From contig JAYEOW010000003.1 of the NCBI GenBank assembly GCA_034723395.1, positions 1 to 53,943 on the forward strand: a stretch of DNA of 53,943 nt, in the 5' to 3' direction. Every line of letters starts with the position of its first letter. Position 1 is the first letter of the stretch. The DNA is from Candidatus Margulisiibacteriota bacterium (GTDB taxonomy: Bacteria > Margulisbacteria > WOR-1 > O2-12-FULL-45-9). The notes beneath the pieces were generated by a model. That model was not told the origin of the DNA and made no database searches. It was given only the letters and a program-made list of their open reading frames with translations. Shown in pieces: positions 8,902 to 26,056 of the stretch. The translations under genes were made by a program, and so were the position numbers.

Positions 8902-8933
8902 TAAACGAATAATACTTTATTTAGCATTTTGAC

Positions 8934-8961
8934 GCAAGTTTTACGCCATTTATTGCGATAT
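8934..8961 (+). promoter_or_regulatory. Sigma-28-like promoter, copy 1
   Basis: GCAAGTTT-N12-TGCGATAT; same motif and spacing upstream of the next two genes. Confidence 0.65.
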
Positions 8962-9007
8962 ATCTATAGTAGAACTATATTATGTATAGTTAGGCTTAGG
9001 TACTATT

Positions 9008-23900: not shown

Positions 23901-25989
23901 TATCCTCTGGGTCCTCTTTGCTGATGAAATGTTATACAACCTGGTCCTCCCCGCCGTAATGAATGAATACGATTACGGAGTTAAACGCGCAATTAATGAA
24001 GCCGGCAGGGGTAGGTTCAACTTAATGAAAATAGACCTAGCGCCGCTGCTAAAATTCTGGAAAGGATCAAGTTGGTCAAAATTTTGGACATCGTTTAAGG
24101 TCGCCGTCGGAAATCCGATCGCTCATGGTCTTAAACGCCAGGGAGCCCAGGACTTAAACGATCAGTTTAAAATAAGGTTTGATCATATGAAGAGGCTTAC
24201 GGCTCTATTCCTCTCACTCTGTCTCAGATTTAGAGCACAGCTCTTTAGCCAAAAGACGGCAGCAAACCAGAGGGGTAATAACTATTATACCTCTTTAGAA
24301 TATAATCAATTCCCGGCAATGCATTTTAAATTAAGCGAAAATGAAGACCCGAAAATCAGGAAACAAGAGATTAAAGACATCAGAAAAATGATAAAAATGG
24401 CTTACCAGATAGGAGAACTCGACAGCGGTGAGCTAAGGGAATGGGGCGGCGCGCTGGCCGGAACCATTAAACTTATCAAAAAATACTTTACTAAAGACGG
24501 CGATATTAGAAGCCACGCTCACCTCCGAGAATTTGTCCTGACCGGGCTCAACGATTACACCGAATCATTAACTGGAGTTACCAGTCGAACCGCTAATGCC
24601 AACTATTGGTATGACCGGGCAACCGGCAGTTACCACCATGTGCTTGCCCTCCCGGGATCAAACACCAAAAATGACCGTACCGTTTATTATCACAAACTCG
24701 GTAGATTATTGAAAGCGATTAGCGGACAAGCCAATACCCTGCTCGGTCTTAGAAAAGCGAAACGCATTCAAGAAATTTTCGCCGCATTTCATAGTGGGAC
24801 AAGAGTAAAAGCGACTCCAGCCGATATCCAGGCCGGGATATTGAACGCGGACGGGACGCTGACCGATGCGACCCTTTCACGGGTCATGAAAGCGGAAAAT
24901 GCGATCTTATTAGCTACTTTCTCTAAACATATCGGGACCACCAACGTGAAAAAAGCTAAAGCCGCCCAGTTTGCGGTAGCGATGAAACAGCTAGAGATCA
25001 TCCGCTTAAAACTTTCTTGTATGGATCACGCTAAACTGGCCATCGCTTTAAAAGCGCTTGGGCTTCCGCCTACCCTCATAATGGGCAAAGCTAATGCACA
25101 ACGCACCCTCCGCTTAATGGGAATTGCAATTACACCTACCAGTTGGGATCTGACCAAGATGGCTAAAGCATTACAGGCCTTCACCATGGTCCAGCATTCA
25201 ACTAACCTAAGCCTGACAATGACCAAACTCAGCAAAGGTGAAGCGGTGGCCGGTTTAGATCAGTTCTATACCGAGCTAATGCCGAACCTTCCTGCCAAAG
25301 TCGCAACCTTGTTTAATAAATTCAAATACGAAACTATTCTCGCCAGCGAAACGGCTACTCCGCAGGTGAAGGCAAAAGCGATCATCAGCCTGGCTAGAGC
25401 TGCAAAAGGCGGTAAGCTAAGAACATTATCAGTAGAAGTCAGAAAAGCACTCAAGGTCGAGATTACAAGAATATTGACCGGAATGTCTACAACGGGAGAA
25501 AAATTAAATGCTATTAAATTAGTAGAAACCTATCAATTAGCCAGCCTGCTTCCGGTAGTCTTAAAAGCAAAGCAGAACGCCGGCAGCGAGGTCGTCACTG
25601 CCGCTACCGACACGATTACCACCTTGGTCTGGAAGGATATCAAGACGACCGGGAACAGTGAGACACTTGCCAAGTTGCTCACTTTTATTGAAAAGAACAG
25701 CAATAGCAAAGATTTTCTTATCAAAGGAGAGGTTGATGATGCATATGCATTGTTAAACTGGGTTTTCCAACAGATTCATGGTAAATTCTTTAAATTCAGG
25801 ATGAGTCGCGCTGATGAAGCCAGAAGAGCACTAGTCAAGGCAAGCCAGAAAAAGGCTTGGGCATTATTCTTGAGACACAACCCTAAACTTGCGGCGTTGC
25901 GCAAAAGATTTTTAGTCATCGATGGACGCAGATTAGAAGCTATGCGCAGACGGCATCCGGATCGGCATATTATTACCGCCAAACACTAA
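14992..25989 (+). CDS. Giant orphan protein (3665 aa) with peptidoglycan-binding-like domain and two hydrophobic helix clusters
   Basis: 11 kb open frame; GAGGG RBS; G.GAVKYLQRLL..AGY...YGVFCKTTLEAL..Y..ENNL resembles PG_binding_1. Confidence 0.9.
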   Translation: MNPPGAVNSVNQIRPVNPANPNQPAEEAYWCDPDNPDPITLASADPSYIAAQAVLNRQEQDDFVADVLGENTPVSAYNMRLFIKVTNSLVNDQTSYSLTQTTVNTALNDPRMKDMLRLKFYQLLSKSIIQPSAVAMPSEEATPIQNVASRLLSQDILDPKITRDFRAGRIRLTIKFLRKKGEIEGFQVFFQYGQYRQPIAEYRDGRITQMPGQDTVGQGAVKYLQRLLWGAGYLDRSGRGFIYGVFCKTTLEALYRYLSENNLLMNFNSNISLHILQQRLKEANRSYLKFKAAPDDSLNNRVLKYQAAKMALRRMSAVIQIAKRYANLPTERLSAKERAFVAESKKAILRFRRLAKALISKVFYGKDAFYKLDLSALGAKKKKWKKTAASKAKKKTEHFKSLIDTAVGILGNLRTWQKLVSGDRVLHNHIQSQIDFFKRRLRKVYITRFPNRPQHVDQLIQEIDQDIMSRIAGTSSDAQSDPAVARRQHAIAAEISKKMGNSPARGIVISILQSYIRQGKSLSKIRSLLRTFVLLSNQRPDLVKRVAMFYLRNQLRAAQGLPEISRMNEDLRTDLHNFTSWGDLNKYYRQKVMNLAFSFYSSVQAHNNLANSSLNKQPQARVKLIKEKDVSILMKMVMEQVKDLSKTDTRRVLQIVSELSESTTVANYELSEQLSTKLDRIATARTGYTAMNGGSSVVVTPRALHSLERKLTTTAALDGAVHYDQVPAHLRPKGATPLDTFFVSPFGVQTVPRDMHIKVRRRNNLAGVEHSFDPITFAKNERTAMIKLALCQYGQCSDREDVMLRERVTSRLTALDLRRTNVVFGESRFWILNPGTLALRGIEIKVLNRVADMIENDTGSSTVISGVLRKITSSGGEVRLTKQEKQELDKFLRYFNIDDYYPANAATTNARERSALQSAIKKLKRGMRLIYHKLGITQEAQDILAKLAGYLSAHPDMAIYDPRLSGNRKYYRVLVGYLKGRLGNTFNEPTFRKVYFKAMRILKQLHSHLFTLTQKNPPPETGYKGVGSFLWEHVKAIGHAGTEAIDAPSPSSFITVGLPNDMVFELNLLLYRGDLVPELGGLNTDIKTIEATIKALLASNQGNIEGAVANIKDVYSLNEAFIKELRKHFTDSKHKKDHVFKSFLQTYIQLIKNIKRMNENPTQYISQADTMLETVEVQLSQIDKRIAAEKGKTKLGVLKRVRLGLLTLSKKLRTIINTRNTIVPEYISLNKKKARREEIITTLSSDRFDADKFTRLSNVFYRLRNTPGVSDKILDWVSGIFSGDQGHVFRPDGTNTRLTPEEIIRAYFKDNPDASFSLQSLSLMPGEGIGAGRGKTITSALVKVALSKLLSTMPRESRLSLAKSLPALFGGHGVSNALLLGLPILSRLTGGADEATYGPITYDQLIRAINDPVTKLKLAFLNFLSLSSDDRPQMNMSSQVYMILANTAKGRELLAKVFARQNGRMKLDHVNQELIKALISHVKKEIIPILKRERDFKRMVLKSSNGKKPSNPFLVDLIKRKLKEKKIAFNLNSYISDPDKLDKLLASLPSGEFQVHDSFHSSNKPLSRFIEAILTITGEFNITAALQNPRDYAMTYFDPGQAIVGQALHYRTNPNDDPPRKIKVVRYGPKVERGAVRKAAGFPGIPVEQWSTRSRESLGIHGPRAVNGVINELRTDYRRFIADALKGGAGFSAHLIFFMGKQINMAFANTAGGLGDFLRAAAEGDKQQAYEAIKRIFKGLAHTTGAFAVFESMGFIFFSEVLNEIEAGNWGAAFGKLLAVSMLTIRGLMTTYKILRSGVKLGWIQIKSGAYGGYSILINRNYRGRAYEMYKMEMAQLAQEFTSPHVAGGKLGFKLIYFHLNPFAPIYRTGKFLAGQVRYLRGGLMAGVSRSPIQIRQGYSANIPGVKALLEPGTRQGRPSADKSTRWEKIVDFSTRYRVNETWRRITLFRKRWTRRAFDSFGSKYSAHSAMDKNTALKAQDIFYTTVADPKACIELAGKQITPREFRKIMSQAAAGNIPGQLKGAKITVTESRGGSTTTISFDAFFDFITTRSHLGSMWVNQGDFYDIKFSKGKRGPKQLGSLLLSGRDILELARIRAKNNFSEFNERVHEILHDSGQKFSAATMRQLYDTLEVPARVLQQAEPDFKKDLTVRNSKPFNVKAYIIALTRTGKTARRLLTERLQITRKGAAKNIKAPTGRQVLEILAKGMSMNPSGQPTVNAEVDAYIGQLFQSQVSDAVFQQALKLAVRRHLKGRFGRYKFATTSFIKTKLDAGRGMWVRRIFRRIFGRYSRYGSPKYRGWKDISKTLKTNKHLNARAEAYAAYYKLPVFKAREILAQRLYTEYLSRRTETLMGLLDTEVNRQAELPKKHKDRYLSDRAIADYHKNGVLKKGWFRRFYQKVSRRSRKTIRAKLGLLDASIEAWVSNTTNSVLDIEGVSSAHRVPLESLRGGTTLAHGSTLRPVRRGAKSAAIKALYKAGVKYIILPAGYENVASKVLISEASLQKTNDGRPRMAHMDGHGVVHIFTAAERLSHSGIEFKGSATALDTAVASKTSAFETLVNTLTEKGAIKFKVEKGVTLTADLMDQITRRANSMTGKQNGIAVRKTASGKVRVDIQTIETASTLAAELKQSPMVRARLAQQKYLEALRKTAKKLGIKGARKMSAEQLGKLMEKAMRQINKGLTLKEFIDKPAKLKKFIKSPEFKKFLRRNPKIAAKLAELKTTRLGSIARHQVTMQIVSGFLFWAVAEGSAHLLAKRFPLLNNPQARFSFIVVMMQTETAIFKSLTGLKGQKNWMALKATYRAFHTALAEAGKAAGAKVVARAAARGGYYALRATIAPKALAESLLGVGMGWFHGTSMLYRWLGLRANADGSGMHKEYINMGASIVTTALVPYLMKGALMRLSPALLAKLAPRAVEFTLLEGLALQKQLLALEAQGGATSIKELLAVKNAATASAEHAVAVGGPLNVLGAILWVLFADEMLYNLVLPAVMNEYDYGVKRAINEAGRGRFNLMKIDLAPLLKFWKGSSWSKFWTSFKVAVGNPIAHGLKRQGAQDLNDQFKIRFDHMKRLTALFLSLCLRFRAQLFSQKTAANQRGNNYYTSLEYNQFPAMHFKLSENEDPKIRKQEIKDIRKMIKMAYQIGELDSGELREWGGALAGTIKLIKKYFTKDGDIRSHAHLREFVLTGLNDYTESLTGVTSRTANANYWYDRATGSYHHVLALPGSNTKNDRTVYYHKLGRLLKAISGQANTLLGLRKAKRIQEIFAAFHSGTRVKATPADIQAGILNADGTLTDATLSRVMKAENAILLATFSKHIGTTNVKKAKAAQFAVAMKQLEIIRLKLSCMDHAKLAIALKALGLPPTLIMGKANAQRTLRLMGIAITPTSWDLTKMAKALQAFTMVQHSTNLSLTMTKLSKGEAVAGLDQFYTELMPNLPAKVATLFNKFKYETILASETATPQVKAKAIISLARAAKGGKLRTLSVEVRKALKVEITRILTGMSTTGEKLNAIKLVETYQLASLLPVVLKAKQNAGSEVVTAATDTITTLVWKDIKTTGNSETLAKLLTFIEKNSNSKDFLIKGEVDDAYALLNWVFQQIHGKFFKFRMSRADEARRALVKASQKKAWALFLRHNPKLAALRKRFLVIDGRRLEAMRRRHPDRHIITAKH

Positions 25990-26010
25990 TGAATTCTGGA
26001 ACTTATAAAC

Positions 26011-26056
26011 GGTGGGGGCAGCATTTAACAGGCATGTTGCTTCCCACCTTTTTTTT
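26011..26056 (+). terminator. Intrinsic terminator after the giant gene
   Basis: ggtgggggcagcat / atgttgcttcccacc stem, loop ttaacaggc, then T8. Confidence 0.85.

Follow-up and report, generated by a model that had tools for sequence, protein, structure and literature searches.

Several bacteria are known to keep the flagellar export machine after the filament has been lost. In the available text of the two closest reports, on the basal bodies of Buchnera aphidicola (PMC8109811) and on a system of the non-flagellated Lysobacter enzymogenes that resembles flagellar type III secretion (PMC7688988), the basal-body and export-gate genes are kept, flagellin and the motility parts are missing, and a role in export is proposed. 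Non-flagellar type III secretion systems, or injectisomes, also rest on the idea of a flagellum-derived machine, which here exports effectors and translocators that lack signal peptides and in some cases carry pairs of hydrophobic helices (Abby and Rocha, PMC3459982, in the sections available to us). In the flagellum itself, the late genes form the class-3 regulon, which is governed by sigma-28 (FliA) in E. coli and Salmonella and by SigD in Bacillus. What, then, would such a machine export if flagellin were gone? Here, we analysed a window of 53,943 nucleotides, that is, the whole stretch of contig JAYEOW010000003.1 (positions 1 to 53,943, forward strand) in assembly GCA_034723395.1 of a Candidatus Margulisiibacteriota bacterium, which contains a cassette of three giant genes, referred to below as A, B and C. 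Each of them lies behind its own promoter of the flagellar late type, in a genome with a flagellar-type apparatus and no detectable flagellin. The explanation that we prefer, and hold tentatively, is that A, B and C are late-class genes of a type III machine that derives from the flagellum but lacks flagellin, and that they probably encode substrates exported by it.

Gene A (9008-11314) encodes 768 aa with a net charge of +71, gene B (11365-14823) 1152 aa with a net charge of +97, and gene C (14992-25989) 3665 aa with a net charge of +263 in one uninterrupted frame. All three are orphan genes on the plus strand, and they occupy the interval between a Ham1/RdgB gene (8359-8901, minus strand) on the 5' side and a HIT gene (26220-26555, minus strand) on the 3' side, so that the three co-oriented frames between rdgB and hinT described in the first-pass annotation of this DNA could be verified with their coordinates. 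Together they make up about 1% of the 1.7 Mb genome.

The same annotation had assigned to each gene its own copy of one promoter motif, and one site was indeed found upstream of each: at 8934..8966 for A (GCAAGTTTTAC, followed after 11 nt by CGATA), at 11321..11353 for B and at 14842..14874 for C, all on the plus strand. The exact word GCAAGTTTYAC occurs three times in the window (at 8934, 11321 and 14842), once 5' of each gene, and five times in the 1.68 Mb genome. In its relaxed form, AAGTTT-N14-CGATA, the motif has 25 sites in the genome versus about 1.6 expected (mean of ten first-order Markov simulations), and these sites are mostly intergenic and oriented toward a downstream gene. The N14 spacing is strictly fixed, other spacers (10 to 19) between AAGTTT and CGATA giving one to nine sites each. 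The published sigma-28 consensus, as stated in the part of the source available to us, is TAAAGTTT-n11-GCCGATAA (PMC2859248). When the -10 element is compared with GCCGATAA from that same part, the three sites and the 25 genomic sites all have CGATA(A/T), with the CGA core, and the full GCCGATA is found upstream of the B homologue in one relative (L033). The -35 element, GCAAGTTT, agrees with the TAAAGTTT quoted there at six of eight positions, and the spacer is 12 nt long versus 11 nt in the consensus. Judging from these motifs, the promoter class of A, B and C is very probably sigma-28-like, which would place the three genes in the late (sigma-28) transcription class. In relatives, too, the motif is found no more than 220 nt upstream of the homologues, in 8 of 8 cases for B and 8 of 12 for C when homologues with complete 5' ends are counted, and the relatives carrying it upstream of B and C span other genera, other families and a second order. 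The proposed co-regulation is therefore borne out, in that each gene has a promoter of its own, all three being of one type, and relatives keep this type in front of their B and C homologues. At the flagellin loci in flagellated families of the phylum, a TAAAG...CGATAA-type site was found within 300 nt in 3 of 19 cases, a count that neither supports nor contradicts the same sigma factor reading the cassette motif.

The apparatus is encoded outside the window, in a basal-body cluster (C55:175-10789) and an export-gate cluster (C46:20422-28960). The basal-body operon has the order flgF, flgG, flgA, flgH, flgI, a 100-aa open reading frame (ORF), a sigma factor gene, flgB, flgC, fliE, fliF, a fliG of 154 aa, fliI and fliJ; the sigma factor, located between flgI and flgB, is FliA/WhiG-like. 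The second cluster contains a FliK-like gene, a short FlgE-like gene, fliM, fliN, fliO, fliP, fliR, flhB and flhA. Six-frame family searches of the genome, which is 97% complete, yielded no match to Flagellin_N, Flagellin_C, FliS, FliD_C or MotB_plug. The FliG of the operon has no C-terminal domain, and just a sub-threshold match to FliG_C was found elsewhere in the genome. The sole match to the MotA/ExbB family is a 153-aa frame on another contig, and the genome-wide matches to Flg_bb_rod are four short ORFs, none of them in A, B or C. There are two secretins, on contigs other than those of the flagellar-type clusters.

The distribution of FlhA gives a wider picture of this machine. Of 146 genomes of the phylum, 135 have FlhA and 15 have Flagellin_N, and 13 of these 15 flagellin-positive genomes have two or more FlhA matches. 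In a quick maximum-likelihood tree of 27 FlhA sequences, rooted at the midpoint and with branch support from the Shimodaira-Hasegawa-like approximate likelihood ratio test (SH-aLRT) only, the FlhA of the present genome falls in one clade (SH-aLRT 99) with that of other genomes having a single copy and with the second copies from six genomes that carry flagellin, and the first copies group with FlhA sequences from flagellated members of other phyla (support 95). Taken together, the distribution of FlhA, the tree and the undetected filament parts indicate that the lineage has a distinct and conserved flagellum-derived machine. A scan of the genome collection for FlhA gave 80 loci from many phyla. 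A literature search that covered openly accessible main texts turned up no account of the cassette, nor of any flagellin-less system in this phylum.

Since promoters of the flagellar type occur here beside an export machine for which no flagellin was detected, the cassette seems to take the regulatory place that belongs to flagellin and hook-associated proteins in motile bacteria, which makes A, B and C the strongest candidates so far for what the machine exports. Each gene would have a sigma-28 (FliA)-type promoter of its own, probably read by the FliA-like sigma factor whose gene lies in the basal-body operon. The apparatus, which keeps the rod, the L and P rings, the MS ring, the C ring, the export gate and the ATPase, would then export the late substrates, either cargo or a distal structure, unfolded and without a Sec signal. 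Consistent with the first-pass annotation, none of A, B and C has a Sec signal peptide; a hydrophobic N-terminal segment is missing, and the earliest hydrophobic windows lie at residue 194 (A), 241 (B) and 1052 (C). The N-termini of the C homologues are of low complexity and rich in Pro, Ser, Thr and Asn. As far as these N-termini go, nothing in A, B and C would argue against type III export. The non-Sec route that had been supposed for the three proteins has thus gained a candidate machine, with sigma-28-like promoters and a flagellar-type export apparatus without flagellin, whereas the export itself is what we infer from them.

How does this arrangement compare with the described systems? 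In its regulatory logic it follows the class-3 flagellar regulon: the promoter is bipartite, with AAGTTT in the -35 element, CGATA in the -10 element and a fixed spacing, a FliA-family sigma factor is encoded among basal-body genes, and the promoter also drives a FliK-like gene. However, the -35 element is GCAAGTTT instead of TAAAGTTT, the spacer is one base longer, and the genes driven are orphan giants rather than flagellin (none of which was detected), hook-associated, motor or chemotaxis genes. Compared with what the available text describes for Buchnera and Lysobacter, with which it shares the kept basal-body and export-gate genes and the missing flagellin and motility parts, the present lineage has a separate clade of FlhA paralogues across the whole phylum, which in a few families is found alongside a true flagellum, and it has a defined late promoter class with candidate giant substrates. 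Unlike the injectisomes, the apparatus has L and P rings of the flagellar kind (FlgH and FlgI), FlgA, rod proteins and FliK and no secretin in its clusters, and no known effector or translocator is homologous to A, B or C. A bolder reading could be put forward, namely that the phylum has a second, flagellin-less and non-rotating flagellum descendant, with its own FlhA clade, a truncated FliG and no stator, which would be a previously undescribed secretion or contact organelle and a third type III branch beside flagella and injectisomes, for which A, B, C and the other giants of 952-1911 aa behind the same promoter would be the class-specific substrates or the distal structure, its cargo families being without relatives elsewhere; we regard this as rather doubtful at present. 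If the preferred reading holds, it would explain why a whole uncultured phylum, sister to Cyanobacteria, keeps a flagellum-like basal body although flagellin is undetected in most of its genomes, and the first candidate substrates of that machine would have been named. The question of what a repurposed flagellar export system carries would also become testable, with defined promoters, a sigma factor and proteins. Should A, B and C turn out not to be exported, there would still be a conserved set of giant proteins under the control of an alternative sigma factor.

The regulon defined by the motif comprises about 20-25 promoters, and its other members bear on the preferred reading from both sides. 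In its favour, the same promoter class is found in front of three further large, basic orphan ORFs of 1838, 1911 and 952 aa (C16:19442-24958, C22:5905-11640 and C31:15583-18441, with net charges of +62, +219 and +100, respectively), of which the first begins with MNPP as C does and the last is a weak paralogue of B. It is also found in front of a second FliK-like gene, of 426 aa and with a Flg_hook domain, which is followed by a 112-aa gene resembling the C-terminal domain of FlhB (C16:154-1890); the two could form a second ruler and switch pair. A PorV-like barrel and several small ORFs are behind the promoter as well. Another of its genes encodes a 125-aa protein with a signal peptide (C6:24950-25327), without a match in Pfam or NCBIfam, which by eye we take to have the look of a 3D/DPBB-type cell-wall lytic domain.

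A number of observations weigh against the view that A, B and C are late exports of the flagellin-less machine. Sites of the same motif lie upstream of hisS and of an FmdB zinc-ribbon gene, whose products need not be exported, and others lie upstream of signal-peptide-bearing proteins exported by Sec; therefore, membership in the regulon alone does not mean type III export. The genome has two FliA/WhiG-like sigma factors, the best match of each being TIGR02479, at 135.6 bits for the one in the basal-body operon (246 aa) and 75.1 bits for the other (196 aa), which is encoded on contig C46. Both scores are under the NCBIfam cut-off of 189.6, and either factor may be the one that reads the motif. 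The motif is kept upstream of A in just one of six relatives. The cassette lies apart from the flagellar-type clusters, which occupy other contigs, and the family of C is limited to one class whereas the apparatus is phylum-wide. One member of that class (G019) combines a flagellin match, a single FlhA and a C homologue. In searches with Pfam, NCBIfam and PDB profiles, no substrate of a flagellum or an injectisome proved homologous to A, B or C; in particular, the late-substrate families Flagellin_N, Flagellin_C, Flg_bb_rod and FliD are not represented in them. No chaperone-like small gene was found within the cassette, and among the public sequencing runs the locus appeared in no RNA run and in one DNA run, which probably stems from the source sample.

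The three families are conserved to very different degrees. In single-sequence searches of 41 related genomes, A was detected in 3 and B in 9; for C, 15 genomes matched the N-terminal half and 5 the C-terminal half. The identity to homologues is about 20% for A, over its full length, and for B, and 16-34% for the core of C. A word-indexed homology search with C residues 1100-1830 returned the query alone, and a scan of the genome collection with a single C-core sequence gave zero relatives. A profile of the C core (aa 1140-1900) reached further, with matches in 27 of 146 genomes of the phylum, every one of them in the same class. When 1.84 billion cluster-representative proteins were searched with this profile, 51 matches were obtained, 36 of them at E<=1e-30; they are mostly giants of 2000-5300 aa, and the shorter ones look like fragments. 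Sixteen loci from relatives were compared and show a recurring layout, in which a gene of about 700-950 aa precedes one of about 800-1280 aa, with a third of about 2400-3700 aa behind them, the A homologues being located upstream of B. The linkage that the first-pass annotation had claimed was found again in at least eight relatives' loci (L033, L036, L037, L040, L042, L044, L045 and L047), where the order A-B-C or B-C is kept. In two further genera the locus is beside Ham1 and saccharopine dehydrogenase, the same as here, and its neighbours in a sister family are MTHFR and Lnt. These conserved chromosomal positions indicate vertical chromosomal inheritance and not a mobile element. Consequently, A, B and C form a vertically inherited, lineage-specific cassette that is conserved in one class of the phylum.

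The uneven conservation of C suggests a different explanation, in which the three are surface or secreted proteins that leave the cell by another route, type I or unknown, and behave like polymorphic effectors or adhesins, in which the N-terminal half would be conserved and serve delivery and the C-terminal half would be hypervariable. The excess of N-terminal over C-terminal matches among the 41 relatives fits this, as do the two to three copies of C in some genomes (including a tandem pair), the hydrophobic helix clusters in C and the two secretins elsewhere in the genome. However, the terminator follows directly after C, with no immunity-like gene downstream, the window has no transporter genes, and Pfam and NCBIfam gave no known toxin, RHS, RTX, haemagglutinin or autotransporter domain. 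The variable part, moreover, is about 1800 aa long and not a short toxin tip. Neither a delivery domain nor a C-terminal toxin nor an immunity gene was found here, and the only trait shared with polymorphic toxins is the conserved N-terminal half with a variable C-terminal half. We therefore think this explanation improbable.

Charge was another property on which the genes had been grouped. A, B and C had been described as K/R-rich and helical; they are indeed basic in this genome, with a K+R content of 15.7-18.6%, and helices are predicted for B and for the folded core of C, but the charge is not conserved among homologues. It ranges from -142 to +220 in the C family and from -118 to +13 in the B family, and the A homologues, mildly basic throughout, are the sole family of the three with a consistent sign. 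The strong basicity thus belongs to this genome, together with one relative (G034) in which C is also strongly basic, and not to the families. HctB of Chlamydia is a histone-like, sigma-28-dependent protein, and by analogy with it A, B and C could be taken as basic proteins that condense the nucleoid at a developmental stage. The high positive charge in this genome and the sigma-28-type promoter would agree with such a role. The charge ranges just given speak against it, and the conserved parts are predicted helical domains instead of low-complexity Lys/Ala repeats, so that we reject this explanation as highly implausible.

Searches for known families and folds gave little. For A, B and C, Pfam yielded nothing at E<=0.01 (the best value being 0.049), NCBIfam nothing above noise, and PHROGs nothing above noise and none at E<=0.01, in agreement with the first-pass annotation, in which no catalytic family had been recognized. 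On the sequence comparisons made here, they appear to belong to no known protein family and to form three families with almost no relatives. The conserved core of C (18409..20691, plus strand, aa 1140-1900), which is the signature of its family, is predicted to be all-alpha in a model built from 16 homologues (predicted local distance difference test, pLDDT, 69; predicted template modelling score, pTM, 0.60). Against the PDB, Foldseek gave no match to this core at E<=0.001 and a sequence-profile search gave nothing under E 0.47. VIA-align gave Z<=11.0, which covers just the first three-helix bundle and falls below the noise bar of about 13 stated by the method for helical proteins.

Could the genes be remnants of a prophage or another mobile element, for example tape-measure-like virion proteins? 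Like the tape-measure proteins of phage tails, C is very long, mostly helical and provided with hydrophobic segments, and in a viral structure library (BFVD) the top rows for the C core were tape-measure and minor tail proteins, the best with an E value of 7.9e-4. However, these matches have template modelling (TM) scores of 0.06-0.12 and a root-mean-square deviation of about 40 A, which amounts to a likeness of long helices only, and they are accompanied by no sequence-family match. The GC content of A-B-C is about that of the flanks, the chromosomal position is conserved across genera and the family is spread across a class. There is no tail module and no phage or transposase neighbour; among 28 neighbouring ORFs scanned, no integrase, capsid or secretion family was present, just as the first-pass annotation had it, and the wider neighbourhood is of a housekeeping kind (an SLH protein, lepA, a hemN-like gene and hrcA-grpE-dnaK-dnaJ). 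Full-length matches to characterised families and homologues that are never linked had been named in advance as counter-evidence; no such matches were found, and the homologues are linked in the relatives' loci given above. The prophage reading is close to refuted, and we reject it.

Two clusters of moderately hydrophobic helices are found in C. Cluster 1 (20029..20376, plus strand, aa 1680-1795; Kyte-Doolittle 1.2-1.4) lies within the conserved core, and cluster 2 (23188..23961, plus strand, aa 2733-2990; Kyte-Doolittle up to 1.97) in the fast-diverging C-terminal half; judged by hydropathy, they may be membrane-inserting. Near the N-terminus, a helix-loop-helix motif (15634..15801, plus strand, about aa 215-270) is conserved in the alignment. 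It had been read as a peptidoglycan-binding-like domain, a reading that the searches did not support: aa 215-270 gave no match at E<=1 in Pfam, including PF01471 (PG_binding_1), and a profile of 12 homologues against the PDB reached the solved 'Peptidoglycan-binding domain 1' (5nm7_G) at E=0.85 only. A viral nucleoprotein was also proposed for this region by the PDB profile search (E 5.8e-4, domain i-Evalue 0.025), and was taken as a chance match.

Gene B (11365..14823, plus strand) appears to be composed of a conserved N-terminal domain, a beta-rich insert, a TPR-like alpha-solenoid and a disordered tail. Its model, from 10 sequences, is mainly helical (pLDDT 67.5, pTM 0.39). The insert spans about residues 323-441 and is followed by an EF-hand-like loop motif conserved in the alignment, which reads GDGxIxxAEL in the consensus (window about 12610-12810). 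The TPR-like solenoid, at about aa 639-1051, was aligned by VIA-align with TPR, SusD and 14-3-3-like repeats at Z<=10.9, again below the noise bar, and Foldseek against the PDB returned generic alpha-solenoids only (TM<=0.28). The Pro/Thr-rich tail corresponds to aa 1044-1152 (window 14490-14823), and in several homologues it terminates with a short acidic and hydrophobic motif. The ESM Atlas gave nothing usable for A and B. The C-termini of A homologues in five loci (L033, L040, L044, L045 and L046) are of an Ala-Ala type (-LLAA, -AIAA, -PLAA and -ELAA), and that of A itself is -EIVA (11290-11314). Such C-termini presumably resemble the ssrA-like ClpXP degrons of cytoplasmic proteins.

The main rival explanation, which we hold to be somewhat less probable, is that A, B and C could be large helical scaffolds or regulators inside the cell, for instance in envelope or cell-cycle remodelling, that belong to a broad alternative-sigma regulon with a promoter that happens to be of the sigma-28 type and are not exported. 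A TPR-like alpha-solenoid is typical of protein-protein scaffolds, the -LAA-like ends of the A homologues recall degrons, the regulon includes the non-flagellar and non-exported hisS and FmdB zinc-ribbon products, and A, B and C carry no recognisable export signal. On the other hand, the sigma gene is located inside the basal-body operon, the FliK-like and FlhB-C-like genes share the promoter, and the machine would be left without any other recognisable late substrate. The fast divergence, the flips of charge and the changes in copy number are also more typical of surface-exposed or secreted proteins than of core scaffolds. We thus retain late export by the flagellin-less machine as the preferred reading, with the reservations given above.

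The transcription signals at the end of the genes could also be located. The one strong terminator that the first-pass annotation had seen closing the block was confirmed as an intrinsic terminator at 26011..26056 on the plus strand (-24.1 kcal/mol, z -2.56), with 4 of 200 shuffled sequences folding as well. A terminator-like hairpin with a T-run is present in the 5' leader of C (14928..14961, plus strand), downstream of the C promoter; it could be a terminator of B, an attenuator or both. Because it lies between the promoter and the start codon, C transcripts must read through it. The whole C leader folds no better than shuffles (z -0.61), and Rfam gave only tRNAs in the window and no known leader element.

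Elsewhere in the window, positions 1-4600 are of low GC content (32-38%) and carry three ORFs without a Pfam family (1196-1723, 2027-2890 and 3703-4500) and several tRNA genes, and two adjacent minus-strand ORFs of 293 and 246 aa without a Pfam family lie beside rmuC (38250-39881). The largest ORF of the genome, which encodes 4624 aa (C43:9212-23086), is of a different kind, a beta-rich surface protein with Ig-like, PD40, NHL, M23 and type-IX-like sorting domains.

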